Part shown: piece after piece, positions 1 to 15,737 of the stretch
Layout of the letters: every line of letters begins with the position of its first letter
Position numbering within the stretch: position 1 is the stretch's first letter
Assembly: GCA_016235455.1 (NCBI GenBank)
Contig: JACRKZ010000145.1
Coordinates: forward strand, 1-15,900
Reading direction: 5' to 3'
Source: Armatimonadota bacterium
GTDB lineage: Bacteria; Armatimonadota; UBA10988
DNA: 15,900 nt
Made by a program: the position numbers and the translations under genes
The notes under the pieces: generated by a model
Database searches by the model: none
Seen by the model: the letters and a program-made list of their open reading frames with translations, nothing else
Told to the model about the DNA's origin: nothing

Positions 1-726
1 CTTGGTCAGGGCCGGGTCGTTGTCGACCAGGTTGGCGATGTTGCGGTAGTACATGCGGTCGAAGGCGTTGGTCTTCACATGGCCGTCGGCAAACAGGAAG
101 TTGGCCTGGTTCATGTGGCGGTGCGCCAGATAGCCCAGGTTGCCCTGGGGGACATTGCGGAAGTCGGCAATGTCGCGGGTGAAGAAGTTGCCGCCGTCGG
201 ACCAGCGGTTCTTGCTGTCCCACATCACCGCCATCTCGGCCGGCCGCACGAGTGCGGCGTCGGCGAACATGGCGCCCGGCAGGTTGCCCGCCGAGGCGGT
301 CGTGCCGTTGCCGATGCCCGAGTAGTTGTAGCTGTACGAGACCTTGTAGAACCGCGGATCGCCCACGATGGGCGTACCGGTGCCGACGTTCCACAGCAGC
401 AGCGGGTCGCTCGGGCAGGCGAAGATCTGGGTGTTCTTGATGTACGGGGCCAACACGTTGCCCGCCCAGCCTTGCCAGTTGCTGACTACCGCGGCGTCAT
501 TGATGTTGCCGTTGCCGGCGTTGCCCGAGTTGGGCCACATAGTGTCGTAGTCGCTGATGTACTGGTGGAAGGCCAGACCGATCTGCTTCAGATTGCTTTG
601 GCAACTCGACGCACGAGCCTTCTCACGCGCCTTGGCGAAAACGGGGAACAGGATAGCTGCGAGAATGGCGATGATCGCGATCACCACCAACAACTCGATC
701 AGCGTGAATGCATGGCGTCGCTTCAC
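1..726 (-). CDS. Prepilin-type N-terminal cleavage/methylation domain protein with DUF1559-like body and C-terminal H-X9-DG motif (3' end runs off the window)
   Basis: Not in the ORF track because there is no stop in the window. Hand translation from GTG at 726, after GGGAGA RBS: [61 protein letters not shown]...[13 protein letters not shown]...SYSYN...[15 protein letters not shown]. Has the FTLIELLVV methylation motif, CPSD, and H-x9-DG. Confidence 0.93.
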
Positions 727-1195: not shown

Positions 1196-2161
1196 TCAGC
1201 CGGCGAGTTCGGGCACATGGATGCGCTCGGGATTCTCGGCCAGGGCCGGCGTCGACAGGTAGCGCTCGCCGGTGTCGGGCAGGATGACCACCACTAGCTT
1301 GCCAGCGTTCTCGGGGCGCTTGGCCACGGCGATGGCCGCCGCTGCCGCCGCGCCGCTGGAGATGCCGACCAGTATGCCTTCGTCCCGCGCGATGGAGCGC
1401 GTGGTGTTGATGGCGTCCTGGTTCTCCACGGTGACGATCTCGTCGACCACGTCCAGGTCGAGCACGCCCGGCTTGAAGCCGGCGCCGATGCCCTGGATCG
1501 GGTGGGGGCCCTTGGCCTCGGGCCCGCGGCTCAGCACGGCCGAGGCCGCCGGCTCCACCGCGATGATCTGCAGGCTCGGCTTGCGTGGCTTGAGCGCACG
1601 GGCGATGCCCGTGATGGTGCCGCCCGTGCCTACGCCCGCCACGACGATGTCGACGGCGCCGTCGGTGTCGCGCCAGATCTCCTCGGCCGTGGTCTCCGCA
1701 TGAATCTGCGGGTTGGCCGGGTTCTCAAACTGCTGCGGGATGAACACATTGGGGTACTCGGCGGCGATGGCATCCGCCTTGCGGATGGCGCCCGGCATGC
1801 CCTCGGCGGCCGGCGTCAGCACCAGTTGCGCGCCCAGCGCCTTGACCAGGTTGCGCCGCTCCACCGACATGCTCTCGGGCATGACCAGCAGCAGCTTGTA
1901 GCCACGCGCCGCGGCCACCATGGCCAGGCCGATGCCCGTGTTGCCGCTCGTCGGCTCCACAATGAGCGTGTCCGCGTTGAGCTTGCCTGCCGCCTCGGCC
2001 GCGTCCAACATCGACACGCCAATGCGCTCCTTGACACAGCCCAACGGGTTGAAGGACTCCAGCTTGGCCGCGACCGTGGCCACGGCGCCTTCGGTCACCC
2101 GGTTCAGCCGCACCAGCGGCGTGTTGCCCACCAGCTTCGTCACGTTGTCTGCGATAGCCAT
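1196..2161 (-). CDS. cysK: Cysteine synthase A (O-acetylserine sulfhydrylase)
   Basis: 321 aa. [17 protein letters not shown](PLP)[63 protein letters not shown]. Confidence 0.97.
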
Positions 2162-2269
2162 TGTCGTTGCCTCTCCGTCAGCCCAGCGGCTGTGTCTTCG
2201 CCCTCACCGACAGTGTGGCACACATTCTACGGTTTGTACAGGGGGAATGGGGATATTCTCTCGTGCCGC

Positions 2270-2297
2270 TTGACAGGCGCATTCCACCGACTACACT
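2270..2297 (+). promoter_or_regulatory. Putative sigma70 promoter of the oxidoreductase cluster
   Basis: TTGACA (2270-2275), 16 nt, TACACT (2292-2297), then GAGGA RBS at 2308-2312. Confidence 0.65.
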
Positions 2298-2317
2298 CCG
2301 CCGAGTCGAGGACGATG

Positions 2318-3931
2318 ATGACGCGACGCGACTGCTTGGCGGGAGGTGCGGCGATGGTAGCGGCGATGGCAACGGGGCTCGGCGCGGCCGAGACCGAATG
2401 GGATGTCGTGGTCTACAGTGGGGTGCCGTGCGGCGCAGCCGCGGCGGTGATGGCGGCGCGCGCCGGAGCGCGGGTGCTGCTCATCGAGCCGACGCACCAT
2501 GTGGGCGGTCTGAGCACCAGTGGCATCAACACCGCCGAGACCGAGCACATGCTCAAGTGGACCATCGGCGGGTTCGCCGACGAGTTCTACCGGCGCATGG
2601 GTCGGCACTATGGCAGTGGCCGGCCCGAGTACTACTTCGAGTCCAGCGTGGCGGAGGCGTGCTACGTGGCCTTGCTGGCCGAGGCCAAGGTCACGGTGCG
2701 CTATGGCCTGCGTGTCGAGCGCGTCACCAAGGATGGCGCGGAGCTGACGGGCCTCGTGTTGAGTGACGGCTCGACCGTGTCGGCCAAGGTGTTCGTCGAC
2801 GCCAGCTACGAGGGCGACCTGATGGCGCGGGCCGGGGTGAGCTACGCGGTGGGCCGCGAGTCGCACGCGGAGTACGGTGAGGAGGCCGCCGGCGTGCGTT
2901 TCGACAAGACCGTGCGCCGCGCGGCGACGGTCGATGCCGACGGCCGGCTGCTGCCGGGCATCAGCGACTGGGCGCGCAACTTGAGCGAAGGCGCGGCCCA
3001 TCGCGGCGTCATGAACTACAACTTCCGGCTGACGGTGGCCAAGGACCCGCGCTACAAGGTGCCCATCCCCGAGCCCCGGCACTACGACCGCGGGCGGTTC
3101 GCGCTGCTCGAAGGCTGGCTGCGGGGCAAAGCGGCGCGGGCCGAGGAGGTCAAGCTTGAGCACATCCTCGACCTCTACGAGCGGCGCAACGGCAAGTTTG
3201 AGCTGAACAACAAGCAGTCGGCCATCGTCTCGCTGGGCCACTTCGGCGGGCAGTTCGACTGGCCCGATGCCAACTGGCCCCAGCGTCAGACCATCTTCGA
3301 CGATCACCTCGACTACACGCTGGGCCTGCTGCACTTCCTGGCCAGCGACGACTCCGTGCCGGCCTCGGTGCGCGCTGAGATGAAAGCCTGGGGACTGCAC
3401 CGCGAGGAGTTCGCCGACAACGGCAATCTGCCCTATCAGTTGTACGTGCGCGAGGCGCGGCGCATGAAGGGCCTGCGGATCGTCACCCAGCAGGATGTCC
3501 AGACTGACCGGCGCAAGGCGGACAGTGTCGGCTTCTCCAGCCATTTCATCGACTCGCACCATGTGCAACGCCTGGCGCTGTCACCGACCGAGTTCATCAA
3601 CGAAGGGCGCATCTGGCGCATGGGCTATGCCTACCAGATCCCCTACGCGGCGCTGACGCCCAAGCCCGACCAGGCGGGCAACCTGCTGGTGCCGGGAGCG
3701 GCCAGCTTCAGCCATGTGGCCTTCTGCTCCTATCGGTTGGAGAGCGTGTGGATGATAGCGGGTCATGCGGCGGGCGTGGCGGCGGCCATGGCGGCGCGGG
3801 CTGATGGCCGTGTCGACCGGATCGACATCGGCGAGTTGCAGGCCAAACTGCGCGCCGGCGGCCAGGTGGTGGACTTCGTCCCCGGCCAGCCCGAGAAGTG
3901 CGAGCACCTGAACGGCCCAGCGGAGTTCTAG
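2318..3931 (+). CDS. Tat-exported FAD-dependent oxidoreductase (FAD_oxidored/PF12831-like)
   Basis: True start is ATG 2318 (or 2315), not 1502. Signal MTRRDCLAGGAAMVAAMATGLGAA. Motifs DVVVYSGVPCGAAAA, LIEPTHHVGGLSTSG, FVDASYEGDLMARAGV, YVREARRM, DSH, YQIPYAALTPK, NLLVP..S.SHVAF.SYRLE. Confidence 0.9.
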   Translation: MTRRDCLAGGAAMVAAMATGLGAAETEWDVVVYSGVPCGAAAAVMAARAGARVLLIEPTHHVGGLSTSGINTAETEHMLKWTIGGFADEFYRRMGRHYGSGRPEYYFESSVAEACYVALLAEAKVTVRYGLRVERVTKDGAELTGLVLSDGSTVSAKVFVDASYEGDLMARAGVSYAVGRESHAEYGEEAAGVRFDKTVRRAATVDADGRLLPGISDWARNLSEGAAHRGVMNYNFRLTVAKDPRYKVPIPEPRHYDRGRFALLEGWLRGKAARAEEVKLEHILDLYERRNGKFELNNKQSAIVSLGHFGGQFDWPDANWPQRQTIFDDHLDYTLGLLHFLASDDSVPASVRAEMKAWGLHREEFADNGNLPYQLYVREARRMKGLRIVTQQDVQTDRRKADSVGFSSHFIDSHHVQRLALSPTEFINEGRIWRMGYAYQIPYAALTPKPDQAGNLLVPGAASFSHVAFCSYRLESVWMIAGHAAGVAAAMAARADGRVDRIDIGELQAKLRAGGQVVDFVPGQPEKCEHLNGPAEF

Positions 3932-3974
3932 CCAGCGTCCGTAACAGAAGGTCGCCGCTCTGTCACATTGGGAG

Positions 3975-4592
3975 ATGAGCCCGCCGTCCGCCGAGCCTGC
4001 CAGCAGCCCATCGCGCCGCATCATGGTGTGTGGCGCCGGCGGCGCCGGCAAGACCACCTTTGCCCGCGAGTTGGCCCAACGCCTGGGTGTGCCGCTGATT
4101 GAGATTGACGCATTGCGCTGGGCGCCCGGTTGGCGACTGGCGCCGCGCGAGGTGCTGCGCGAGCGCGTCGAGCGCGCCCTGCGGTCCGAGGCCTGGGTGG
4201 CGGAAGGGCCATGTCGCGACCTGCGCGACGTGCTCGGCGCGCGAGCGGAGCGGATCCTCTGGCTGGACTACCCGTTGCCCGTGGTGGTCGGGCGGTCGCT
4301 GCTGCGGGCGGTCGAGCGCGTGGTCTGTCACCGCTCCATCCTCAACGGCAATCGTCCGCCGCTGGGGACCGAGGCGCTGCTGCTGCTGGGCCGCATGTTG
4401 CGCCGTCGGTGGGCGCGCGTGTTCGCCGGCGAGACGCTGGCCGAAGCCTTCCTCAACCGGCCGCCACGCCATCTGCTCTGCGCCGATCGGCGGGTGGTCC
4501 GTTTCACTCGCCCAGAGCAGGCGCAAGCCTGGCTGTCGGGCATCGCGCCGCTGGCAGGTGCCGGCCCGGCCGGCGCGAACCTGAGTGTGTGA
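3975..4592 (+). CDS. P-loop NTPase, adenylate kinase-related / FlaR (topology modulation)-like
   Basis: RIMVCGAGGAGKTTFARELAQRLG Walker A, IDALRWAPGW, WVAEG, ILWLDYP, NGNR. Start codon uncertain. Confidence 0.8.
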   Translation: MSPPSAEPASSPSRRIMVCGAGGAGKTTFARELAQRLGVPLIEIDALRWAPGWRLAPREVLRERVERALRSEAWVAEGPCRDLRDVLGARAERILWLDYPLPVVVGRSLLRAVERVVCHRSILNGNRPPLGTEALLLLGRMLRRRWARVFAGETLAEAFLNRPPRHLLCADRRVVRFTRPEQAQAWLSGIAPLAGAGPAGANLSV

Positions 4593-4607
4593 CTGGGAGT
4601 GCCCCGC

Positions 4608-6245
4608 GTGAACCACTTGAGCGGCGTCGTGCTCATCTGCTGCCTCGCTGCCTCGGCCGGCGCGCAGGACCTGTTCGACCTGCAGGGCCACATCGACCGG
4701 GCGGTGGCCGCGGGTCAGAAGACTATCACCGTCCCGCCGGGCCGCCATCGTGTCGCACCTCACGACCGTCAGCATCTGGTGCTGCGCGGCCTGAAGGACA
4801 CCACCATCGTTGCCGACGGTGCCGAGCTGGTCTGCACCGAGACGACGCGCGCGCTGACCATCGCCGACTGCACCAATCTCACGCTGCGCGGCCTGACCAT
4901 CGACTACGACCCGCTGCCGTTCACCCAAGGCCGCCTCACCGCGCTGTCGGCGGACAAGAAGGTGCATGACATCGAGCTATTTGACGGCTATCCCGCGGCC
5001 GCCGCGGCGCGCAACTTCAAATACGAGATCTACACGCCCGACACGCGCCTCCTGCGCTGTGGCGACCACTATCCGGCGAGCGTGACGCCGACCGGCGAGC
5101 GCGGCCTGCGCGTGACGATGAACCAAGGTGCCGCGGCCGATCCCGAGCAGGTGGGCGACATCATCGTCATCGGCGCCGAGTTCGCACCGCATGGCAGCAT
5201 TCCGCACGCGGTCGAGTGTTCGGCCAGCACGAACGTCAGGCTCGAACGCGTCACGCTCTACGCCAGCAACTGCTTCGGCTTCCTGGAGTACAACTGCGAC
5301 GGCAGCGTCTACGACCGCTGCGTGATCGACCGTCGCGCGCCGGGCGACGATCCGGTCAAACGTGCCGACCCACGCGCCCGCTCGCTCGACGCCGACGCCT
5401 TCCATAGCAAGCACGCCTTGCGCGGCCCGTCGTATCTGGGCTGCGTGGCCCGGTACATGGGCGACGACGGCATCAACATCTGCGGCGACTACCATCTGGT
5501 CGGCTCGGCCGCCGGCACGGAGTTGCGCGTGCTGGCCAAGCAACGGCTGAACATCGCCGTGGGTGATCCCGTGGAACTGCTGACCTACGAGGGCCGGCGT
5601 CTGCCCAACGCCACGGTGACCGCCGTGACGCGGCTCGACACCATTACCGACGAGGAGCGTGCCTGGCTGGTCAAGCAGCGCATGGACGAAGGCCTGCGCA
5701 GCCGCGAGTGCCGCGAGGCCTGGCAGATCACCCTCGACCGCGCCGCCGATTTGCCGCGCGGCTCGCTGATCGCCTCGGCGCGGCGCATGGGCAACGGGTT
5801 CCGCGTCATCGGCTGCGAGTTCGGCTTCAACCGCTCCCGCGGCATCCTCATCAAGGCCAGTGACGGGGTGGTCGCCAACAACCGCCTCGTGGGCAACTGG
5901 GGCCCGGCCATTCTCTGCTCACCGGAATTCTGGTGGCTGGAGAGCGGCAGCTCCAACAACGTGGCCATCCGCGGCAATCAGATCACCGACTGCCGCTCAC
6001 GCGCCATTGTGGTCGAGGCGACCGGCGGGGCCGGTCTGTTCACCGGCACGCCGGCCGCCGCCGGCGCGCACAACAACATCACCGTCGAGGGCAACCAGGT
6101 CAGCGGCGGACCACAGCCGAGCGTGGTGCTGACGTCGATCCTGGGACTGCGGCTGACCGGCAACCGCTTTGTCGGCCTGCCGGCGGGGACCGAGCCGATC
6201 AAGCTGACCAACTGCGAGCAGGTCAACCAGTCGGACAACCAGTAG
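4608..6245 (+). CDS. Secreted right-handed parallel beta-helix protein, GH110 (alpha-galactosidase)-related glycoside hydrolase
   Basis: GGGAG RBS fits GTG 4608 (track start is 4599). Signal MNHLSGVVLICCLAASAGA. IDYDPLPFTQGRL, DADAFH...GDDGINICG, NRSRGILIKASDGVVANN, repeated N-I-x-GN beta-helix coils. Confidence 0.8.
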   Translation: MNHLSGVVLICCLAASAGAQDLFDLQGHIDRAVAAGQKTITVPPGRHRVAPHDRQHLVLRGLKDTTIVADGAELVCTETTRALTIADCTNLTLRGLTIDYDPLPFTQGRLTALSADKKVHDIELFDGYPAAAAARNFKYEIYTPDTRLLRCGDHYPASVTPTGERGLRVTMNQGAAADPEQVGDIIVIGAEFAPHGSIPHAVECSASTNVRLERVTLYASNCFGFLEYNCDGSVYDRCVIDRRAPGDDPVKRADPRARSLDADAFHSKHALRGPSYLGCVARYMGDDGINICGDYHLVGSAAGTELRVLAKQRLNIAVGDPVELLTYEGRRLPNATVTAVTRLDTITDEERAWLVKQRMDEGLRSRECREAWQITLDRAADLPRGSLIASARRMGNGFRVIGCEFGFNRSRGILIKASDGVVANNRLVGNWGPAILCSPEFWWLESGSSNNVAIRGNQITDCRSRAIVVEATGGAGLFTGTPAAAGAHNNITVEGNQVSGGPQPSVVLTSILGLRLTGNRFVGLPAGTEPIKLTNCEQVNQSDNQ

Positions 6246-6256
6246 CGGCGCGCCGC

Positions 6257-8548
6257 CTACTTTGCCGCCACCACATAGGGGATGGCGGGCAGATGGCCGA
6301 GCGTGTAGCGCTGAGTCTTCTTCTTGCCTTCCGGTCCGGTCTCGACCTCGGCGGCGACGGCGACGATGAGGTTGTCGGCATCGCCTGGTTTGATCGTGGC
6401 GGGGTCGATCTTGAGCACCAACACCACCGAGCCGGCACCGGTCTTGGCCTCCTGCAGGCTGATCCCCTTGGGCGGGTCGCTCAGGTCGAACTTGATCATC
6501 GGTGGCACGGGGCGAAGGCCGGTGCTGAGGATGATGCTGGCCAGGCCCGTGGTGGGTATCGGCACTGGCACACGCTGGGCGATGGTGACGCTGGGCACGA
6601 ACCGTGCCCCGCGGGCCGAGGCCACGACCAGCTCCCGGGCCGGCACGAGGTGCTTGAAGAAGAAGGCCTGCATGAGGTCGTCGGCGGGCGTCACCGGGCG
6701 GGTGATGACCTCTCGGCCGACGGTCGCGCGACCCACCATGATCAGGTTGAACGGCACGTCGACCGCCTTGGGGCCGGCATTGACCGTCAGCCGCACGCTG
6801 TCGCGCCCGGCCGGGATGCGGTTGCCGCTGAGCGTGAAGCCGGCCGGCGCGTCGCGCAGGACGATGTCGATGGGCCCGGTGAACCCGTCGCGTCGCGCCG
6901 CATGCACCGTGATCGGTGCCGAGAAACCTGGCGGCACGGTGATGGCTGACGACGACGTGCGAAGCGCGAAGTCGGGCCGCGGATCGCCCACGCGCAGCCG
7001 GTAGCCAAAGTCGGGACCGCCCGACTGCAGCGTGTCCGAGAGCATGATGCGGTACACGCCGTCGGCCGGCAGTCTGGCCAGCAGATACGAGTCGGCCTGG
7101 TTGGTGATCAGCCCCGCGGCCGGGTCATCGTAGTCGTCGTTGAGCGCGATTACCTTGCCCGCCGAATCCACGAGCCGCAGCAGCGAATCGAGCGACGACT
7201 GCAGCCGCCGTGCCATGACCTCGATGGCCACGCTCTGGCCGGCGCGCCCGCTGAAGGCGAACACATCGACATCGCCCGGCTGGCCGATGCGGCCGTTGAC
7301 CGTCACGGGCAGGGAAAGCAACTGCGGCCGGTCCAACGAGTTGTTGGGCTCGACCTCGCTGGCCTCGGGCAGGCTGTCCACCGCGTAGGCGATAGGATTG
7401 GGCAGCCACCGGCCAGGGATGAAGACGCTGCGCAGAATCTCGGCGCCGGGTTGGGTGTCCAGCGCGAAGCTGCTGGGCGGGATGTTCCAGCCGGTCAGCG
7501 ACACGCTGGCCTTGCTGCTCGTGCGCCCGCCCAGGGGCCAGATGCCGGTGACGAACGGCAGTTCACCCACCGCCACGCGATAGACAAAGTCTTCGCGGCC
7601 GCGCCAGATGGCGTCGCGCACCTCGAGGTCATACAGGCCGTCGGCGGGCACTTTGAACATGAGTACCGGGTCGGGGTCGTAGCGATAGTCGTCGTCGAAG
7701 GCGATCTCCCGACCGTCGCTGTCGTACAGCGCCAAGGTGGCCTGGAACCAGCCGGGCACGGCGTCAGCGAGATAGGGCGTGATGCGCCGGGCCTGAGCGA
7801 TCATGACCAACTGCTGGCCCTTTTTGGCGCGCAGGCGGTAGCGGTCGCTGTCGCCCGGCATGATCTGCCCGTTGATCATCACCGGCAGGTCGTAGGTCTT
7901 GAGCGGTGGCGGCGGCGCCTCGTTGACCCGGCGGAGCCTGGCGGGGCTGCCGGTCGGCTGGTCCTCCTCGACGATCTCGGGCAGAACGCCGACCTCGAAG
8001 TTCACGGGGTTGGACAGGCCCTGGTTGGTCTGCACGCGCAGTTGGTGGTAGCCGAGGGCGGCCTTCGGGTCGACGATGACATCGACGATGAGCGACTCGG
8101 CGATCTGCGCGTTCTCCTGGCGCTTGGGGTCGAACAGCTTGCGGGCCAGGGTCGACAGCTCGTCGACTGTCTTCTTGTCCAGGTCGCGTAGCCAGGGGTG
8201 GTCCGGCAGCTTGATCGGCTTGCCATCCTCCATCGGCTGTTCGAAGGCTCGGCCCGTCACCTTGGCGCGGATCAGCGCACCAATCACCTTGCCGATGTCG
8301 CCGAGCACCTGCTTGCCCAACGGCCGCACATGCTCCACCACCTTGGTGGTCAGACCGATGCCCGAGGCCTCGACCAGCCTGGGGCCGCCCAGGTCCTCGC
8401 CGCCCAATGTCACGCGCACCGTGGTGCCTTGCCGGCCACCGGCCGGGAAGGCATAGCCCAGGTGCGGATCGCGCCCGAAGCGTTGGGCCAGGGCCGCGGG
8501 GGCGAGCACCGCTGGCAACAGGCATAGTAAGGCGAGCCGACGAGTCAT
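6257..8548 (-). CDS. Secreted PPC (pre-peptidase C-terminal)-domain protein of the DUF1501/DUF1553 operon type
   Basis: Signal MTRRLALLCLLPAVLAPAALA. FPAGGRQGTTVRVTLGG start, two PPC-like repeats (ING.I..PGD.D.Y/F; AFDDD / ALNDD), EVEPNN, Ig-like C-terminal domains. No subtilase GTSMA motif seen. Alternative start at 8554. Confidence 0.85.
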   Translation of the reverse strand: MTRRLALLCLLPAVLAPAALAQRFGRDPHLGYAFPAGGRQGTTVRVTLGGEDLGGPRLVEASGIGLTTKVVEHVRPLGKQVLGDIGKVIGALIRAKVTGRAFEQPMEDGKPIKLPDHPWLRDLDKKTVDELSTLARKLFDPKRQENAQIAESLIVDVIVDPKAALGYHQLRVQTNQGLSNPVNFEVGVLPEIVEEDQPTGSPARLRRVNEAPPPPLKTYDLPVMINGQIMPGDSDRYRLRAKKGQQLVMIAQARRITPYLADAVPGWFQATLALYDSDGREIAFDDDYRYDPDPVLMFKVPADGLYDLEVRDAIWRGREDFVYRVAVGELPFVTGIWPLGGRTSSKASVSLTGWNIPPSSFALDTQPGAEILRSVFIPGRWLPNPIAYAVDSLPEASEVEPNNSLDRPQLLSLPVTVNGRIGQPGDVDVFAFSGRAGQSVAIEVMARRLQSSLDSLLRLVDSAGKVIALNDDYDDPAAGLITNQADSYLLARLPADGVYRIMLSDTLQSGGPDFGYRLRVGDPRPDFALRTSSSAITVPPGFSAPITVHAARRDGFTGPIDIVLRDAPAGFTLSGNRIPAGRDSVRLTVNAGPKAVDVPFNLIMVGRATVGREVITRPVTPADDLMQAFFFKHLVPARELVVASARGARFVPSVTIAQRVPVPIPTTGLASIILSTGLRPVPPMIKFDLSDPPKGISLQEAKTGAGSVVLVLKIDPATIKPGDADNLIVAVAAEVETGPEGKKKTQRYTLGHLPAIPYVVAAK

Positions 8549-8576
8549 GACCATCTCCCGACAGTGGCGCGGCCGA

Positions 8577-9905
8577 TCAGATCAGTTCGGTGACGCGGCC
8601 GCCGCCTTCCGCCGCGGGCATGAGCTTGATGTCGAGCCCGCGCGGGTTGGGCATGGGCGAATCGGGGTCGATGCCCAGCAACTGATACATGGTGCCGATC
8701 AGGTCCTGCGGGCTCACCGGCCGGTCCTTGACCTGTTCGCCGCGGGCATCGGAGGAGCCCACGACATGGCCGCCCTTGAAGCCACCGCCGGCCACCAGCG
8801 CCGAGAAGACCGAGCCCCAGTGGCTGCGGCCACCGTTCCACGGCGCCTCCCAGCCGATCTTGGGCGTGCGGCCAAACTCGCCGCCACACCACACGATGGT
8901 CGAGTCCAGCAGACCACGGTCCGACAGATCCGTAATCAGTGTGCTGAGCCCCTTGTCCAGTTCGGGCAGCTTGCGGCGCATGGTCTCGAAATGCTGCTTG
9001 TGCGTGTCCCAGCCGCCGTAGTTGACCGTGACGTACGGCACGCCGGACTCCACCAGCCGCCGCGCCATGAGGCACGACTGACCAAAGGTGGTGCGGCCGT
9101 AGCGCTCGCGCAGGTCGTCTTTCTCCTGGTTCAGGTCGAACAGCTTGGCGCCGTCGCCCAGGATCAGGTCGTAGGCCGCCTTCTCGGTCTGGTCCAGCTT
9201 GGCGAACTGGTCGTTGCCCGGCATGGCCGCGCCCAGCGAGTCCAGCCCGTGCAGCAGGTCGCGCCGCAGCTTCTGGCGGTCGTCGGTGATCTGCTCGGAG
9301 ATCACGCCTTCCACGGCGAAGCGCTTGGCGGCCGGGTCGCCACCGGTGGCGAACGGCTTGTACTTGGGTCCCAGGAAGCCCGACTCCGAGAAACGGCCCT
9401 GGGGCTTGGTCAGCACCACGTACGGCGGGATCATGCCCCGGTAGCCGGCATCGTAGCCGCGCAGCAGCGAGACCACGGCGCCCATGCACGGATAGACCAG
9501 CCGGTCGCCGGAGCGACGGCCCGTCTGCACCAGGTACGACGCGGTCTCGTGGCTGTTCACGCCGTGGGTCATGGAGCGGATGACCGAGTACTTGTCGGAC
9601 AGCGGCGCCAGTAACGGCATCAACTCGCTGATGCGCAGGCCGTCGGTCTTGGTGGCGATGGGCGAGGTGAGCGGCCCGGCGTAGTCGCGGCCGGCCTCGG
9701 GCTTGGGGTCGAAGGTGTCGATGTGACACGAACCGCCCCACAGCCAGATCTGAATGACCGCCTTGGCCTTGGCCCCGGCGGCGGGCTTGACGACGGGGGC
9801 CTGCGCTTCCACGGCGCCCTGGCACAGCAGGCCCAGACCGGCTGCGCTGGCCAGCATCGCGGCGATTGCCTCCCGACGGTCCATCTCGCTCGAATATCGA
9901 CTCAT
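8577..9905 (-). CDS. DUF1501 family protein, Tat-exported
   Basis: MDRREAIAAML...AEA Tat-like signal. AKAVIQIWLWGGSCHIDTFDPKP, YGRTTFGQSCLMARRLVESGV, GGWDTH, GEFGRTP, GRSHW, AGGGFKGGHVVGSSD. GAGGT RBS. Confidence 0.93.
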   Translation of the reverse strand: MSRYSSEMDRREAIAAMLASAAGLGLLCQGAVEAQAPVVKPAAGAKAKAVIQIWLWGGSCHIDTFDPKPEAGRDYAGPLTSPIATKTDGLRISELMPLLAPLSDKYSVIRSMTHGVNSHETASYLVQTGRRSGDRLVYPCMGAVVSLLRGYDAGYRGMIPPYVVLTKPQGRFSESGFLGPKYKPFATGGDPAAKRFAVEGVISEQITDDRQKLRRDLLHGLDSLGAAMPGNDQFAKLDQTEKAAYDLILGDGAKLFDLNQEKDDLRERYGRTTFGQSCLMARRLVESGVPYVTVNYGGWDTHKQHFETMRRKLPELDKGLSTLITDLSDRGLLDSTIVWCGGEFGRTPKIGWEAPWNGGRSHWGSVFSALVAGGGFKGGHVVGSSDARGEQVKDRPVSPQDLIGTMYQLLGIDPDSPMPNPRGLDIKLMPAAEGGGRVTELI

Positions 9906-9926
9906 GGTTGCCTACCTCGGCGCCAC

Positions 9927-11468
9927 TCAGTGGCGGTACAGGAATTCCTTGGTGTTGAGCAGCGCCCAGGCCATGTCCAGCCCGGCCTGGAACGGCGCGC
10001 CTGCGTAGCGTCCGGCGGCGGCCAGTTCGGCGTCGGTCGGCTGCCGCGAGAGAATGAGCACATACAGCCCGCGGACCATCGTCGCGCGGTTGCCGCGCGA
10101 CGTCAGGCCCAGGCTGCGCAGCTGCGGGCTGGATTCCAGCCGCCGTTGCAGGTCACCCGAGTTGAGCATGTACAGCCGCTGCGAATCGGTGGGCTGGTTG
10201 TTGCGTTCGGAGTCCAGGCCGGTATCGCGCGGCGGGCGCCCGAACATCTCGAGGAACGAGCTGGTGATGCTGCCATCACCCAGCGCCACGGCGCGCTGGT
10301 TCTCGGGCATCCAGGTGAACGGCTCGGGCACCTGCGAGCTGTAGGAGTCGGTCTGGCCGGTGATGGCCAGCAGCGCGTCGCACAGCACCTCGGCGTCCAG
10401 TCGCCTCACGGGGTACGCGGCGAACAGCGCCTCGGCGCCGGGTGCCGTGCTCTGCGCGATGGCCGACTGCTGGTAGCAGCGCGAACCAACGATGATCTTG
10501 ATCAGCGCGCGCAGATCGAACCGGGCCTTGACCAGCTCGGCCTCCAGGTAGGACAGCACCTCGGGCAGGGCCGGTGGGTTGTCGGGTCGGATATCGTCGG
10601 TCTCATGGACGATGCCCCGGCCAAATAGCCAGGCCCACATGCGGTTGGCCAGCGACCGCGCGAAGTAGGGGTTGGTCGGCGCGGTGAGCCAGGCGGCGAA
10701 GGCCCGGCGTGGGTCGGCGCCAGCGGCGATGCGCTCGCTCTTGCCATCGGGATAGGTCACGTCCAGCGGCTCGACGATGGTCGGATCGAGGCAGACGATC
10801 TCCTCTTTCCACTCCTCGGTCTTCTTGAAGATCAGCCGTGAGAAGAACCTGGCCAGGTCGGTGCGCTTCGCCGCCGGCCATTTGTCCAGGCGGGTGCCCA
10901 TCCAGGTCAGCGCCACTGCCTCGGCGATGCCGTTGGCATCACGCGTCTGGATGGCGCGGTAGAAGTTGGCCGGCGCCACGCGGAAGTTGCTGCCGTTGGC
11001 GGTGAGCAGCTCGGTGACCACCTGGTCGAACGGCCGGTTCGACTCCACCTGGTCACGGACCCAGCGGTGGTAGGCCTGCACGGCATTCGGCCACAAATTG
11101 ATGGGGAACTCGGCCTTGATGCGCAGCGTGTCGCCCCAGCGCATGGCCCAGTAGTCGGCGAACTCGGGTCGGGTCAGCAGTGCGTCGACCAGCCTGGCTC
11201 GCCGGTCGGACCGCTTATCCTGGGCGAAGGCATTCACCTCGTCCGGCTTGGGCAAGGTGCCCAGCAGGTCGATGAACACGCGCCGCAGATAGACCTCGTC
11301 GGAGCAGGGCCGCGCCGGGGTCAGCCGCCGCGCCGCCAAGGCCTTCTCGTGCAGCACATCCAGCGGCGTGGCCGCGATGGGCCAGGCGGCCAACTCATAC
11401 GGTGCCAGCGGGCCGGCCGCCGAGGCGCCCAGGGCCATTGTCCGCCGCGCACTGTCCAAGATGCCCAT
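9927..11468 (-). CDS. DUF1549 (PSCyt2) + DUF1553 (PSD1) domain protein, apparently without the heme motif
   Basis: SDEVYLRRVFIDLLGTLP, LVDALL..PEFADYWAMRW, NRPFDQ, NPYFARSLANRMWAWLFGRGIV, RRLDAEVLCDA, FGRP, DMAWALLNTKEFLYRH. Start 11468 preferred (GGAGG/AGAGG RBS) over 11498, which overlaps the predicted -10. Confidence 0.9.
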   Translation of the reverse strand: MGILDSARRTMALGASAAGPLAPYELAAWPIAATPLDVLHEKALAARRLTPARPCSDEVYLRRVFIDLLGTLPKPDEVNAFAQDKRSDRRARLVDALLTRPEFADYWAMRWGDTLRIKAEFPINLWPNAVQAYHRWVRDQVESNRPFDQVVTELLTANGSNFRVAPANFYRAIQTRDANGIAEAVALTWMGTRLDKWPAAKRTDLARFFSRLIFKKTEEWKEEIVCLDPTIVEPLDVTYPDGKSERIAAGADPRRAFAAWLTAPTNPYFARSLANRMWAWLFGRGIVHETDDIRPDNPPALPEVLSYLEAELVKARFDLRALIKIIVGSRCYQQSAIAQSTAPGAEALFAAYPVRRLDAEVLCDALLAITGQTDSYSSQVPEPFTWMPENQRAVALGDGSITSSFLEMFGRPPRDTGLDSERNNQPTDSQRLYMLNSGDLQRRLESSPQLRSLGLTSRGNRATMVRGLYVLILSRQPTDAELAAAGRYAGAPFQAGLDMAWALLNTKEFLYRH

Positions 11469-11497
11469 GCCTCTGGTCCTCCGCCGTCTGCCCCGCA

Positions 11498-11525
11498 TAG
11501 ACGATACCCTTTTGAGGTACGTTCA
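11498..11525 (-). promoter_or_regulatory. Putative ECF sigma factor promoter for the DUF1553-DUF1501-PPC operon
   Basis: Minus strand TGAAC (11525-11521), 17 nt, CGTCTA (11503-11498): the AAC/CGT pattern typical of ECF promoters. Confidence 0.55.
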
Positions 11526-11567
11526 ATGCATCATCGGTCAGAACGCGCACCGGCTGTAACAGCTTCG

Positions 11568-12875
11568 CTACCTGGCCAGTTCGAGCAGGACCTGGCCGGC
11601 CAGGTTGGCAGTGACCAGCGCCAGCCAGGCTACGGCCCATTGTCGCTGGCCGCGGTCGAGTTCGCACCACGTCCAGCCGCCGCACGCGGCGATCATCAGC
11701 AGCGGCACCACGCCGAACCGGTAGCGACTGTGACCATACGACACGGCGTGGATCAGCGTCAGCGCGGCGACGGCCAACAGCGTCATCTGGCCCAGATCGC
11801 GCCGGCGCGCCACGCTGGCCGCCAGGCCGATCCCGCCGAGCGCCAGCAACAACCAGCTCTCCAGCGCGCACAGGCCCGCCGCGGCGAGTGTCGGCAGTCG
11901 GCCGTGCCGGCCATACAAGCCGCCTTGGATGCCGCTGGCCAAGCCGCGCTCGGGCCCCCACAGCGCGCTGGACTTGGTGATCAGGCCGAGCAGGAAGCGC
12001 GGCGGGTCGGCGACGATACGGCTGGCTGCGGCGCGCATGGCGGCCCGTTCCATCTGCCGTTCACTGGCCCCGCTGGGCAGCGGCCAGGGCTTGTCGTCCT
12101 CATCCACCAGGTCCCAGGCGCGCAGCAGGGGCGTGCGCTCGTGATTGCCCCAATAGAGGTTCAGTGCGCCGTTGGTGTCGACGAGTACCCAGTCGCCCAG
12201 GACCACCCTATTGCGCAGCGTCCACGGCGCGATGACCAGCGCTGCCGCCAACCCGCACCACAACGCCGGACGCCAGCCGCGACCGCATCCCAGCCACAGC
12301 ACCACGAGCCCGACCAGCACCAGTGCCGAGCCGCGGCACAAGCAGGCCAGACCCAGCGCCGCGCCCGCCGCGGCATGGCGACCGGCGCCCCTGGCCGTGA
12401 GCAGCGCCAGCAGCCCAGCCAGCAGGCACAGTGCAAAGAGCGTCTCTGAGAACAGGCTGTGACTGTAGTAGAGCAGCGTGGGGCTGAGCGCGGCCCAGGC
12501 CGCGAGCCAGGCCAGGCCGCGCCGGCCGACAGGGCCCGCGGCTGCGGCCAGCGCGATGATCAGCCCGACCAGCGCCGAGCCCAGCGCGGCCTGGGTGAGG
12601 CGCGCGGCGGCCGTGGACGGGCCGGTCACGCGGTAGACGGCGCTCAGCACCAGGGGCCAGAGCGGCGGGCGGTAGGCGGTGGCGCGCCCGTCGGCGGTAA
12701 CGTAGCCCTGCCCGGCGGCCAGCCGCGAGGCCAGGCCGTGGTACTCGATCTCGTCGGAGATCGGTGCCGTCGAGAGCGCCGGCAGCAGCGTGAGCAGACG
12801 AACCGCCGCTGCCGCCGCGACCACGAGCCATAGTCGGCGGCCAACGGCTGGGCCGGGTTGCGGTGCGATGGTCAT
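11568..12875 (-). CDS. GT-C fold membrane glycosyltransferase (ArnT/PMT-like, GT39/GT83-type)
   Basis: Likely start ATG 12875 (MTIAPQ...). Many hydrophobic segments. SDEIEY first-loop acidic motif, AYRPPLWP, SETLF, APWTLRN, TNGALNLYWGN, RYRFGVVP. Confidence 0.85.
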   Translation of the reverse strand: MTIAPQPGPAVGRRLWLVVAAAAAVRLLTLLPALSTAPISDEIEYHGLASRLAAGQGYVTADGRATAYRPPLWPLVLSAVYRVTGPSTAAARLTQAALGSALVGLIIALAAAAGPVGRRGLAWLAAWAALSPTLLYYSHSLFSETLFALCLLAGLLALLTARGAGRHAAAGAALGLACLCRGSALVLVGLVVLWLGCGRGWRPALWCGLAAALVIAPWTLRNRVVLGDWVLVDTNGALNLYWGNHERTPLLRAWDLVDEDDKPWPLPSGASERQMERAAMRAAASRIVADPPRFLLGLITKSSALWGPERGLASGIQGGLYGRHGRLPTLAAAGLCALESWLLLALGGIGLAASVARRRDLGQMTLLAVAALTLIHAVSYGHSRYRFGVVPLLMIAACGGWTWCELDRGQRQWAVAWLALVTANLAGQVLLELAR

Positions 12876-13046
12876 GGCGCTGGGCGACTCGATTCCTGGA
12901 CAGACTGACCGCCGTCCGCGCCCATCATGCCACGTTCGGGCGGGCGCGCTCAACCCACCGCGCGGGCCGCCACCCACACATCTCACTCCGAGCGTGCGCC
13001 AGCAGGCCACGCCGCGCGCGTAGCGCGAGTCGCGCACATCGCCACA

Positions 13047-13075
13047 TTGACACACGCGCACCCAACTGGTAGCAT
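13047..13075 (+). promoter_or_regulatory. Sigma70 promoter of the transketolase operon
   Basis: TTGACA (13047-13052), 17 nt, TAGCAT (13070-13075), with extended TG at 13067-13068. Confidence 0.7.
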
Positions 13076-13135
13076 CCACACGATCTGTCGGACGTTAGCT
13101 CTGGGGGCCATCAGGCACGACGGCAGAGGGGATCG

Positions 13136-13972
13136 ATGTCGATGAATGCGCTGTCGCAAGCCGAGTGCGTGGCCAAGTGCCGCGTTATCCGGCGCCATAT
13201 CATTGAGATGCTGGCCGAGGCTGGCAGTGGACACCCGGGCGGATCGCTATCGGCGGCCGAAGTCGTGACGGCGCTGTACTTCCATTTCCTGCGCCAGGAT
13301 CCTGCCCAGCCCGAAGCGGCCGACCGCGATCGCTTCATCCTCAGCAAGGGCCACGCCGTGCCGGTGCAGTACGCCGCCATGGCCGAGGCCGGCTACTTTG
13401 AGGTGAGCGAGCTGAGCACGCTCCGCCGGATCGATGCGCGCTTGCAGGGCCATCCTGTCAAGGGCACGCTGCCGGGCATCGAAGCCTCGACCGGAGCGCT
13501 CGGCCAGGGCCTGTCCATCGCTTGCGGCCATGCGCTGGCGGGCAAGATGGACGCTGCCGGCTACAAAGTCTTCTGCATGATGGGCGACGGCGAGATCGAT
13601 GAAGGCCAGGTGTGGGAAGCGGCGCTGTTTGCCGCGCACCAGAAGCTGAGCAACCTGATCGCCATCGTCGACGCCAACGGCATTCAGCTCGACGGCCGTG
13701 TCGAGGACATCCTCGGCCTGGAGCCGCTGGTGGACAAGTGGGCCGCGTTTGGCTGGTCGGTCATCGAGATCGACGGCAACGATATGGGCCAGGTGTTTGA
13801 CGCGCTGGAACGGGCCGTGGCCAACACTTCGGGCCAGCCGGTGTGCATCATCTCGCGCACCGTCAAGGGTAAGGGCGTGAGCTTCATGGAGAACGGCGTC
13901 GAGTGGCATGGCGTGGCGCCCACGGCCGAGGAGGCCGAGCGGGCCTTGGCCGAGATCGGAGGCGTGGCATGA
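13136..13972 (+). CDS. tkt: Transketolase, N-terminal (TPP-binding) subunit
   Basis: GHPGGSLS, DRFILSKGHA, LQGHP, STGALGQG, GDGEIDEGQVWEA...VDAN TPP motif, KGKGVSFME, WHG. GAGGGG RBS. Confidence 0.95.
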   Translation: MSMNALSQAECVAKCRVIRRHIIEMLAEAGSGHPGGSLSAAEVVTALYFHFLRQDPAQPEAADRDRFILSKGHAVPVQYAAMAEAGYFEVSELSTLRRIDARLQGHPVKGTLPGIEASTGALGQGLSIACGHALAGKMDAAGYKVFCMMGDGEIDEGQVWEAALFAAHQKLSNLIAIVDANGIQLDGRVEDILGLEPLVDKWAAFGWSVIEIDGNDMGQVFDALERAVANTSGQPVCIISRTVKGKGVSFMENGVEWHGVAPTAEEAERALAEIGGVA

Positions 13973-14919
13973 GCAGCACCCGCGCACTGGGCCGCGCCAC
14001 GCGCGATGCGTTCGGCGACGTGCTGGTCAAGCTGGGCGCCGAACGGGGCGATGTGGTCGTGCTCGACGCCGACCTGGCTAAGTCCACCCGCAGCGGCAAG
14101 TTCCAGGCCAAGTACCCCGAGCGCTTCTTCGACATGGGCATCTGCGAGGCCAACATGTGCGGCGTGGCCGCCGGCCTGGCCGCCTCGGGCAAGACGGTGT
14201 TCATCGCCAGCTTCTCCTCGTTCCTGCTGTGCAAGGGCTTCGACCAGTTGCGCATGGCCGTGGCCTATCCCGGCGAGAACGTGAAGATCATTGGCACGCA
14301 CGGCGGCATCACTCTGGGCGAGGACGGCGCGTCGCAGATGAGCATCGAGGACTTCGCCCTGGCCTTGAGCCTGCCTGGCGTGGTCGTCTGCCACCCGGCC
14401 GATGACGAGTCCGCCAAGCAGTTGCTGACGCAGATCGCCGCGCAGCAGGGCCCGGCGTACGTGCGCCTGGGCCGCGAGAAGGCGCCAACGCTCTACTCGG
14501 CGAACGACAAGGTCGAGCTGGGCCGCGCGCAGGTGCTGCGCGACGGCGGCGACCTGACCCTCGTGGCCAATGGCCTGATGGTCGGTCTGGCGCTCGATGC
14601 CGCGGAACAGATGGCCGCGACGGGTGTCGAAGCACGCGTGATCGATGTGCACACGCTGCGTCCGCTGGATAGCGCGACGTTGGCCGCCGCCGCCCGCGAG
14701 ACGGGCGCGATGGTGGTGGTTGAAGAGCATCTCAAGGTGGCCGGGCTGGGCTCGGTCGTGGCACAGGCGGTGGTCGAGAGCCACCCGGTGCCGATGCGCT
14801 TCGTGGGGTTGGAGGGTTACGCCGAGTCCGGCAGCCCAGCCGCCCTGCTGGCCAAGTATGGCCTGACCGCGGAAAAGATTGTCGCCGCGGCGAAAGAGGT
14901 CTTGGCGGCCAAGCGTTGA
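13969..14919 (+). CDS. tkt: Transketolase, C-terminal (pyrimidine-binding) subunit
   Basis: ATGA overlap with the upstream gene gives start 13969. ATRDAFG, LDADLAKST, FDMGICEANM, GEDGASQ, GPAYVRLGR, VEEH, ESG...LLAKYGL. Confidence 0.95.
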   Translation: MSSTRALGRATRDAFGDVLVKLGAERGDVVVLDADLAKSTRSGKFQAKYPERFFDMGICEANMCGVAAGLAASGKTVFIASFSSFLLCKGFDQLRMAVAYPGENVKIIGTHGGITLGEDGASQMSIEDFALALSLPGVVVCHPADDESAKQLLTQIAAQQGPAYVRLGREKAPTLYSANDKVELGRAQVLRDGGDLTLVANGLMVGLALDAAEQMAATGVEARVIDVHTLRPLDSATLAAAARETGAMVVVEEHLKVAGLGSVVAQAVVESHPVPMRFVGLEGYAESGSPAALLAKYGLTAEKIVAAAKEVLAAKR

Positions 14920-14954
14920 AGGGGACCATAGACGCCCCGGAGGGACGAACCACG

Positions 14955-15737
14955 ATGAGGTTGCCGATCGCCTGGGCCACCGCGGTGGCGATGTGTGGAA
15001 GCCTGTTGCTCGGCGGCTGCGGAGCCGGCGATCCGACGGGTGTGGAGTCCGATCGCGCGCTGCACGTCAGGGTCGGAGGTAGTGGCGATGTCTACTTCCC
15101 CGGCTCGCTGCGCTCGCTTCCCTTCTCCAACAGCGTCACGGTGGCGCTGGCCAACACCACTGGTGGCGCGAACCAGTACACCATCTACACGCTGTTTGGC
15201 CTGACCCGACTGACCATGACTGAAGTGCCGACCGCGGCCCTGGTCACGTTCGTCGATGGCCTCAATGCCGCCACGTCGTCCAGCACCGAGCTGCCGTCGG
15301 GCAGCGTGGGCATGATGCTGCACGACGGGTTCGACCAGGGCCTCGTCTCGGGTGGCAGCGTGTTGGCCCAGGACGCGCCGACCATCTATGAGCGCTTGTC
15401 CACCGGCACCATGCTGCTCGAACCGCAGCAGGACCTGTCATCGGCCTTCCTGTCGCAGGCTTCGATCTACCGGCAGGTGCGCTACAGCACGGTCACGCTG
15501 AGCGACACGGCGACGTCAGCCGAAGTGCTGGCCCAAGGCGCCGCGCCGTTCCAGGTTTCGACCAACGTCAGCCAGCAGTTCCTTGGCTACGCGGGCAACC
15601 TGGGCCTGTTGGCCCAGCCCAGCACCGGCGGTGGCGGTCCTCCCGACCCGCCCGGTAGCGGCACAGGCACGGGCGGCACGACCGGTGGCGGCACCACGGG
15701 CGGCACGGACAACCCGCCAACCCCGCCGCTGCGCTAG
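14955..15737 (+). CDS. Hypothetical lipoprotein with Gly/Thr/Pro-rich C-terminal tail
   Basis: GGAGGG RBS, ATG 14955. MRLPIAWATAVAMCGSLLLGG-C lipobox. Tail GGGGPPDPPGSGTGTGGTTGGGTTGGTDNPPTPPLR. Confidence 0.75.
   Translation: MRLPIAWATAVAMCGSLLLGGCGAGDPTGVESDRALHVRVGGSGDVYFPGSLRSLPFSNSVTVALANTTGGANQYTIYTLFGLTRLTMTEVPTAALVTFVDGLNAATSSSTELPSGSVGMMLHDGFDQGLVSGGSVLAQDAPTIYERLSTGTMLLEPQQDLSSAFLSQASIYRQVRYSTVTLSDTATSAEVLAQGAAPFQVSTNVSQQFLGYAGNLGLLAQPSTGGGGPPDPPGSGTGTGGTTGGGTTGGTDNPPTPPLR

Follow-up and report, generated by a model that had tools for sequence, protein, structure and literature searches.

The names of the PSCyt2 (DUF1549) and PSD1 (DUF1553) domains reportedly go back to Studholme and coworkers in 2004. 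In bacteria of the Planctomycetes-Verrucomicrobia-Chlamydiae (PVC) group, genes for DUF1501 proteins cluster with genes for PSCyt/PSD1 proteins; the excerpts of Kamneva et al. (2012, Genome Biol Evol, PMC3542564) used here give the function as unknown, describe frequent twin-arginine (Tat) signals on DUF1501, propose electron transport, and include as the "most complex" type a four-gene cluster with a signal-peptide protein bearing a weak PPC match. Conserved PSCyt gene neighbourhoods in Verrucomicrobia are likewise described as of function not known in the excerpts of PMC5615132, and the cited part of PMC2754498 places one PSD1/PSC2 protein beside an extracytoplasmic function (ECF) sigma factor in Rhodopirellula. 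We analysed a trio of this kind, encoding a DUF1549/DUF1553 protein (gene 1, below the DUF1553 protein), a DUF1501 protein (gene 2) and a PPC-domain protein (gene 3), within the whole 15,900-base contig JACRKZ010000145.1 (the window) of a 6.5 Mb, 93% complete genome. A first-pass annotation made from the sequence had stated that the trio has no demonstrated function, in agreement with the literature above (in the parts cited), and that its host is probably an Armatimonadota bacterium outside Planctomycetes, which the genome is. Among named relatives, those closest to the PPC protein carry Armatimonadetes, Armatimonadota or Armatimonadia labels, followed by Phycisphaerae and Planctomycetota. 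The window copy is an ordinary member of a real, very widespread operon type, and its DUF1553 and DUF1501 proteins are predicted to bind each other.

The three-gene operon and its relatives

With the PVC clusters in the sections of PMC3542564 available for comparison, the window trio has in common a Tat-signal DUF1501, a signal-peptide protein with a weak PPC match, a DUF1549/DUF1553 protein and the co-oriented arrangement. It differs from the four-gene cluster in having three genes, without PSCyt1, Big_2 or a WD40 gene; its DUF1549/DUF1553 protein holds PSCyt2 and PSD1 only (523 aa), whereas the described protein is PSCyt1/Big_2/PSCyt2/PSD1; the CxxCH motif of DUF1549 is deleted; and the host is Armatimonadota, not a PVC bacterium. 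The three-gene form may already be shown in figure S14 of that paper.

The three co-oriented genes with gaps of 21 and 28 nt proposed by the first-pass annotation were recovered as open reading frames (ORFs) on the minus strand, and the families that it named all scored above the curated Pfam cut-offs. PSCyt2/DUF1549 (PF07583; 105.8 bits, E 3.9e-30, cut-off 29.8, profile positions 2-152 of 209 only) is followed in gene 1 by PSD1/DUF1553 (PF07587; 149.9 bits, E 1.1e-43, cut-off 28.5); DUF1501 (PF07394) scored 313 bits (cut-off 27, E 4.2e-93) with positions 1-380 of the 390 in the profile covered, and PPC (PF04151) matched at residues 428-506 (42.8 bits against 25.9, E 1e-10). NCBIfam gave no match for any of the three proteins. 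The supposed lack of a cytochrome c, WD40 or Big_2 accessory also held for the trio in Pfam and in a CxxCH search.

Relatives were collected by scanning one genome per species, which gave at least 587 PPC-protein matches, and the best 79 loci were kept; these are the closest relatives, chosen through two PPC-protein peptide patterns, and the counts describe that subfamily. Where the contig left room, the gene immediately upstream of the PPC gene, in the same orientation, was that for DUF1501 in 70/72 loci (exceptions L004 and L016), and DUF1553 lay upstream of DUF1501 in 59/63 (exceptions L009, L019, L047 and L048, with runs of N in L009 and L047), so that the trio order is conserved. Identity to the window was 46-61% for DUF1553, 59-69% for DUF1501 and 39-51% for PPC, and the extrapolated intergenic gaps had medians of 45 and 16 nt. 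By their record titles the 79 loci come from about ten phyla, with labels of Planctomycetota (several orders), Verrucomicrobiota, Victivallales, Armatimonadota, Bryobacterales, Hydrogenedentota, Sumerlaeia, WS1, Omnitrophota and others. The four-gene form's WD40 protein was matched in 0/79 loci. Clustering of the ORFs of all 79 gave only the trio and antisense shadow ORFs, hence no fourth conserved gene; the best flank clusters, a PQQ_2 propeller protein and a sulfatase, reached 7/79 loci. The minimal form is thus not special to this genome or to hosts outside Planctomycetes; it is the architecture that a large subfamily of orthologues has as its standard.

The PPC family as a whole is large: at least 6,024 clusters (90% identity) had E<=1e-5 among 8,000 candidates scored, and in an exhaustive search E<=1e-30 was reached by 2,108 clusters (50% identity) and E<=0.001 by 10,651. 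In the window's phylum a PPC-family match with E<=1e-30 was present in 59/201 genomes sampled and a DUF1553 match in 22/41 relatives, and seven genomes (G009, G011, G018, G026, G031, G037 and G039) held 32-44 DUF1553 matches each. Planctomycete-style expansions of the DUF1553 system thus also exist in Armatimonadota; outside the PVC group, too, the system is not rare and has expanded. Four of the 79 loci (L025, L042, L057 and L072) have a second PPC-family gene in tandem after DUF1501 and the first PPC gene, 39-43% identical to that of the window. Trio contigs L015, L035, L051 and L077 were in bins labelled Bathyarchaeia, Bifidobacteriaceae, Alcaligenaceae and Bifidobacterium, respectively; these are probably mis-binned contigs, and the labelled hosts are unlikely.

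The genome holds two DUF1501 and two PSD1 matches above the Pfam cut-offs. The second locus, on contig C144, is of the four-gene type of Kamneva et al. and encodes, in order, a long-form DUF1549/1553 protein, DUF1501, a WD40 protein and a PPC protein, with identities to the trio of 45% (DUF1553), 55% (DUF1501) and 43% (PPC). The DUF1549 domain of this paralogue bears a CARCH motif, with a C-x4-CH-like stretch further upstream; its WD40 ORF is without CxxCH and in this departs from the PSCyt1/WD40 protein of the 2012 study. The 10-residue segment that bears CARCH is deleted in the window protein and in the trio type, and the CxxCH haem motif occurred in 0/29 trio-type DUF1553 rows and in 0/3 window proteins, because of which we take the trio type to be, on its sequences, a haem-free subfamily; the CxxCH that would mark the PSCyt2 domain as a cytochrome was not found inside the domain. 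A third PPC-family gene (contig C40, 42000-57000; 6430-8655, minus strand) is 42% identical to that of the window and without the ADAVPGWF insert. No DUF1501 or DUF1553 gene was found near it; its same-strand neighbours are genes for a GH141-like beta-helix protein, GH88 and Laminin_G_3, a context which hints that the PPC-protein family can serve glycan-degrading loci alone.

Predicted DUF1553-DUF1501 complex and protein folds

Mature DUF1553 and mature DUF1501 were modelled together with a 30-row alignment each, in three runs alongside three controls. The interface score ipSAE was 0.88 in all three runs and 0.00 in the best of the 3 controls, which places the pair beyond a mark that was reached by 116/157 solved complexes and 2/215 mismatched pairs and that is only roughly valid here, own alignments having been used. 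The runs had at least 86% of contacts in common, with a partner predicted local distance difference test (pLDDT) value of at least 88. In the predicted interface, DUF1553 residues 414-523, including the terminal ...YRH, contact a helical insert of DUF1501 (residues 197-248); the terminal H is found in 30/30 alignment rows, and RH in 29/30. Memory of a solved complex is unlikely to explain the pass, because neither chain has a solved relative by sequence: in the PDB, P0001 gave no match, and P0002 and its profile gave only chance staphylococcal-nuclease matches (E ~0.1). The model supports DUF1553-DUF1501 binding. Of the three-part machine proposed by the first-pass annotation, a complex of these two chains is what the prediction supports, and the support is limited to them; that the three proteins form one functional unit with the DUF1553-DUF1501 pair is very probable in our judgement. 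Mean column identity in the orthologue alignments was 62% for DUF1553, 69% for DUF1501 and 53% for the PPC protein.

DUF1501 begins with DRREAI followed by a 20-residue uncharged stretch, a twin-arginine signal; the RR motif is present in 66/68 orthologues, in the form T-R-R-x-A-L-K. The model of this protein (pLDDT 72; predicted TM-score, pTM, 0.78) has a predicted alkaline-phosphatase-superfamily core fold closest to the nucleotide pyrophosphatase/phosphodiesterase (NPP) and PafA phosphoesterases. A second-look structural aligner ranked ENPP6 (5ege) at Z 18.7 (root-mean-square deviation, rmsd, 3.1; 248 residues aligned), Xac NPP (2gsn) at Z 18.2 and PafA (5too) at Z 18.1, with 247-284 residues aligned over this group, and formylglycine sulfatases, with which the superfamily fold is common, at Z 16-17. 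Foldseek put LtaS/LtaP and sulfatases at the top (E 7e-7 to 1e-4, TM ~0.4) and had YejM/PbgA periplasmic domains among its matches. DUF1501 is only 12-17% identical to the NPP and PafA enzymes with no sequence-level match, and it differs from them in its Tat signal, a helical cap insert predicted to bind a separate helical protein, and E-F for the expected D-H pair; from the formylglycine sulfatases (PF00884) it differs in being without a Pfam Sulfatase match, the C/S-x-P-x-R motif and the D-H pair.

The residues invariant in DUF1501 are D63, H114, H119, E120, D300, H302, E343, R346 and H362. Candidate nucleophile and metal residues, all conserved, are T113, D63, D300, H302/H305, E343 and H362, with Phe in place of one expected His; the invariant polar residues follow the order expected of a superfamily metal site, and the putative active site is assigned from motif order. 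The order of the conserved Asp/Thr/His motifs is presumably similar to that of the NPP site residues. No Pfam Sulfatase match (PF00884) was found in the trio at E<=0.01, and the sulfatase C/S-x-P-x-R nucleophile motif was absent from the invariant columns of DUF1501, where by our own reading of motif spacing an invariant H-E-T occupies its position. A profile alignment of DUF1501 with sulfatases had a probability of 88.6 over 94 columns, in the C-terminal half.

The PPC protein has a classical Sec-type signal, signal-like in 76/77 orthologues, and was modelled (pLDDT 81, pTM 0.79) as an all-beta array. PPC2 gave Z 14.9-15.6 (rmsd 2.1-2.2) to the ColG/ColH collagen-binding domains 5iku, 3jqw and 1nqd, with 3jqw best (rmsd 2.2, 114 residues aligned, 23% identity), and like them has an E-x-E-P-N-N start and acidic loops; the sequence profile matched only 5iku in the PDB (E 0.044). 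In contrast to the clostridial collagenases, there is no peptidase in the PPC protein or the operon, and the two PPC domains are set in an IPT/Ig-like array. PPC1 was recognised by fold and internal repeat only, with no Pfam match, and bears the invariant insert PYLADAVPGWFQ. Whole-chain Foldseek gave generic Ig arrays only (ciliary proteins, alpha-2-macroglobulin/C3; TM <=0.18). The PPC1 insert was tried as a marker of DUF1501 adjacency and rejected upon checking 22 further PPC-family loci: the motif was present in 3, DUF1501, DUF1553 or WD40 genes lay within 4.5 kb in 13, and six motif-less loci had DUF1501 and DUF1553 both nearby.

N-terminus of the DUF1553 protein and the possible role of the trio

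The first-pass annotation had seen export signals on two of the three proteins, and those of DUF1501 (twin-arginine) and the PPC protein (Sec-type) were borne out, the DUF1553 protein being without a canonical hydrophobic core. Its N-terminal 11-residue hydropathy maximum is 1.23 against an orthologue median of 2.6; 51/54 orthologues have a signal-like N-terminus (hydropathy >=1.8), and the N-termini of 8/8 orthologues from the window's phylum are hydrophobic and signal-like. In the window protein an RR pair follows an Arg-rich stretch and is separated by 15 residues, uncharged and weakly hydrophobic, from P-Y-E, which aligns with the P-F-E conserved after the orthologue signals; all family-invariant positions are retained in the rest of the protein. 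A hidden frameshift at the 5' end of gene 1 was considered and rejected: no signal peptide was found there in other reading frames, and a contig from a second study, covering 10798-11706 with 18 substitutions (none listed between 11342 and 11548), has no gaps. As that contig matches gap-free across the 5' end of gene 1, an assembly error behind the signal-less N-terminus appears unlikely. No closer relative of this N-terminus was found, metagenome contigs giving <=60% identity and the same-genus genome G001 (80% complete) giving no match. Two other orthologues, at L049 and L041, also had a low N-terminal hydrophobicity score. At L041 the signal is followed by a long Ala/Pro-rich linker, which accounts for the low score; the protein at L049 (Tepidisphaeraceae label) may be truly signal-less like the window protein.

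The reading that we favour, at close to an even chance, is that the trio is a self-contained exported (periplasmic) enzyme module. DUF1501 would be the catalytic subunit, exported folded via Tat and acting with metal as a hydrolase or transferase, its predicted fold within the alkaline-phosphatase superfamily being nearest to NPP/PafA; the haem-free DUF1549/DUF1553 protein would be its obligate partner, with the C-terminal third including ...YRH clamped onto the DUF1501 cap insert (~197-248); and the IPT/PPC/Ig protein, of collagenase-PPC type, would be a binding or anchoring subunit that presents a polymeric or envelope-bound substrate. Phosphoester hydrolysis or transfer is a tentative choice for the chemistry, to which we give somewhat less than an even chance. 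The substrate would probably be the same in all carriers, since DUF1501 is so closely conserved across phyla while the gene neighbourhood is variable.

Several observations weigh against an exported phosphoesterase. Because the DUF1553 protein of this organism is without a canonical signal peptide, assembly of the complex beyond the cytoplasm may not follow the usual course. The predicted interface is not better conserved than the rest of either chain (0.76 vs 0.72 in DUF1553, 0.74 vs 0.80 in DUF1501). The preference for NPPs is aligner-dependent, Foldseek putting LtaS-type enzymes and sulfatases above them, and the DUF1501 model is middling, with pLDDT <50 at 58-62 and 345-363, beside the presumed metal ligands. 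The profile alignment with three sulfatases places E343-F344 on their metal-binding D-H pair; one metal ligand may thus be lost, and DUF1501 could be non-catalytic like YejM/PbgA, which have the alkaline-phosphatase (AlkP) fold. A measured activity, transcript or interaction for the module proteins was not found in the literature.

The last structural point would lead to a non-catalytic envelope or adhesion complex, in which DUF1501 would be an AlkP-fold pseudo-enzyme scaffold and the trio would bind or organise an envelope component. The E-F in place of the D-H pair suits such a scaffold, as do the YejM/PbgA matches and a third protein made of binding-type beta-sandwich domains only; but D63, H114, H119, E120, D300, H302, E343 and H362 remain invariant at the superfamily metal site, and the conservation of Tat export among DUF1501 orthologues also speaks against it, since Tat substrates are typically proteins that are folded or loaded with a cofactor before they are exported. 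We regard a scaffold as unlikely. A glycan sulfatase-like module, in which the PPC/Ig protein would hold polysaccharides and DUF1501 would strip them of sulfate esters during carbohydrate foraging, seems to us rather improbable. It would fit the sulfatase matches of the model (Foldseek E ~1e-5) and of the profile, the sulfatase gene cluster in some flanks, the Beta_helix gene that adjoins the trio, the orphan PPC paralogue of C40 between glycan-degradation genes, and the placing, in the excerpts of PMC5615132, of PSCyt genes near sulfatases and carbohydrate-binding modules. The trio, however, has no Pfam Sulfatase match, H-E-T stands at the C-x-P-x-R position, E-F is aligned with the metal-binding D-H pair, conservation does not extend to the flanking genes, and the identity of DUF1501 across phyla suits one fixed substrate better than varied glycans.

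Electron exchange between DUF1501 and a DUF1549/1553 cytochrome, as proposed in 2012 from cytochrome-type motifs and Tat signals (PMC3542564, in the parts cited), could draw on the CARCH that the four-gene paralogue keeps in the same genome. The trio type, however, has the carrier segment deleted and CxxCH in none of its rows or of the window proteins, Pfam finds no redox-cofactor domain, and the fold predicted for DUF1501 is hydrolase-type; such a role is unlikely for the haem-free type, and as an account of this trio we find it barely credible. The N-terminus of the DUF1553 protein raises the alternative of local decay or rewiring, by which this protein would stay in the cytoplasm non-functional, ride on the Tat-exported DUF1501, or use a weak Tat signal of its own, SARRTMALGASAAG. 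A hydropathy below that of nearly all orthologues, including those of its own phylum, is what would be expected, and the lack of a signal in other reading frames and the gap-free second contig leave assembly error as an unlikely cause; the RR pair with its uncharged stretch and the predicted binding to DUF1501 also speak for this alternative. Decay is at odds with the retention of every family-invariant position elsewhere, and neither the best metagenome contig (60%) nor G001 supplied a closer relative to show inheritance, so that we consider decay or rewiring quite improbable. The enzyme module could also be taken further, as a universal single-purpose periplasmic phosphodiesterase machine in which DUF1501 would be active only as the DUF1553 heterodimer, a calcium-dependent PPC/Ig array would feed it one fixed polymer common to at least 8 phyla of envelope-rich heterotrophs, and here a Sec-less DUF1553 would hitchhike on the Tat-exported DUF1501; we hold this to be a long shot.

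Layout of the locus, its neighbours and its meaning

The coordinates of the trio, of the C144 paralogous locus and of the domains of the PPC protein are collected in Table 1. The longest ORF of gene 3 (6257-8554) has 765 aa from its first ATG; the second ATG gives 763 aa. The spacer before it is accordingly 22 or 28 nt, and 28 nt is the better reading because of the GGGAG before the second ATG and the database gene call of 763 aa. The true start of gene 1 is probably the ATG at 11468 (M11, the eleventh codon), which is preferred because GGAGGA lies 8 nt upstream of it. The single ECF-like promoter claimed earlier did not hold up: the pattern is present just before gene 1, but its frequency is at chance level, with 2 occurrences of GAAC-N16-18-CGTC in the window where shuffling predicts 1.99 (123/200 shuffles reach 2), and a promoter scan found no sigma-70-like site upstream of gene 1. 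A terminator scan found no minus-strand terminator after gene 3, and no Rfam family was found within the window.

Table 1. Positions of the trio features in the window, of the four-gene locus on C144 and of the domains of the gene 3 protein
Feature	Position	Strand	Basis or remark
Gene 1, DUF1549 (PSCyt2) + DUF1553 (PSD1), all-helical, 523 aa	9927..11498	-	Pfam, ORF
Gene 2, DUF1501, 442 aa, twin-arginine (Tat) signal, predicted alkaline-phosphatase-superfamily fold	8577..9905	-	Pfam, model
Gene 3, Sec-signal beta-sandwich array, 763 aa	6257..8548	-	Pfam, model, database gene call
Spacer of genes 1/2, 21 nt, GAGG ~9 nt before ATG	9906..9926	-	sequence
Spacer of genes 2/3, 28 nt, GGGAG 6 nt before ATG at 8548	8549..8576	-	sequence
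GAAC-N17-CGTC, pattern match only, one base before ATG at 11498	11500..11524	-	pattern scan
11-nt gap to convergent Beta_helix gene, inside GC-rich palindrome GCGGCGCGCCGC	6246..6256	.	end of unit
C144 four-gene locus (40000-54281), genes	3774-6218, 5825-7180, 7182-8564, 8522-11821	all -	ORFs
IPT/TIG-like domain with helical insert	residues 27-190		Z 10.5 to IPT/TIG folds
PPC1	residues ~220-331		Z 11.3 to subtilisin C-terminal jelly roll
Ig-like domain	residues 334-399		model
PPC2	residues 396-525		Z 15.6 to ColH collagen-binding domain 3jqw
Three further sandwiches	residues 527-762		model

The 3' neighbour of gene 3 is the convergent Beta_helix gene (4599-6245, plus strand). On the 5' side a co-oriented membrane protein gene (11568-13079; PMT_2-like, E 8e-4, below the Pfam cut-off) ends 69 nt before gene 1; this upstream gene was not conserved with the trio. 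Also near the trio is a gene for an FAD_oxidored (PF12831) domain protein (1502-3931, plus strand). The FAD_oxidored and right-handed beta-helix neighbours, with the C40 locus rich in glycoside hydrolase genes, suggest a glycan-foraging genome; beside the trio elsewhere, neither gene was conserved in the 79 related loci. Beyond the membrane protein gene, the window has a split transketolase in two overlapping plus-strand ORFs (13136-13972, thiamine pyrophosphate-binding N-terminal part; 13903-14919, pyrimidine-binding/C-terminal part). The C40 locus holds RNA polymerase Rpb2 and Rpb1 domains in one chain (12659-15001, plus strand), which appears to be a fused minimal RNA polymerase.

Among the protein systems of Planctomycetota, Verrucomicrobiota and neighbouring groups that still lack an explanation, that of DUF1501 with DUF1549/DUF1553 is one of the largest. 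To what had been described, the present analysis adds a predicted heterodimer, a character of the module that would be NPP/PafA-like rather than that of a sulfatase or cytochrome, and a DUF1553 partner that appears signal-less. The window does not add a new system: its trio represents the simplest form, which is also single-copy, haem-free and the best conserved, and is where biochemical work could most practically begin. The predicted heterodimer and the predicted NPP/PafA-like fold, together with the absence of the haem motif, offer a testable alternative to the electron-transport idea of 2012.

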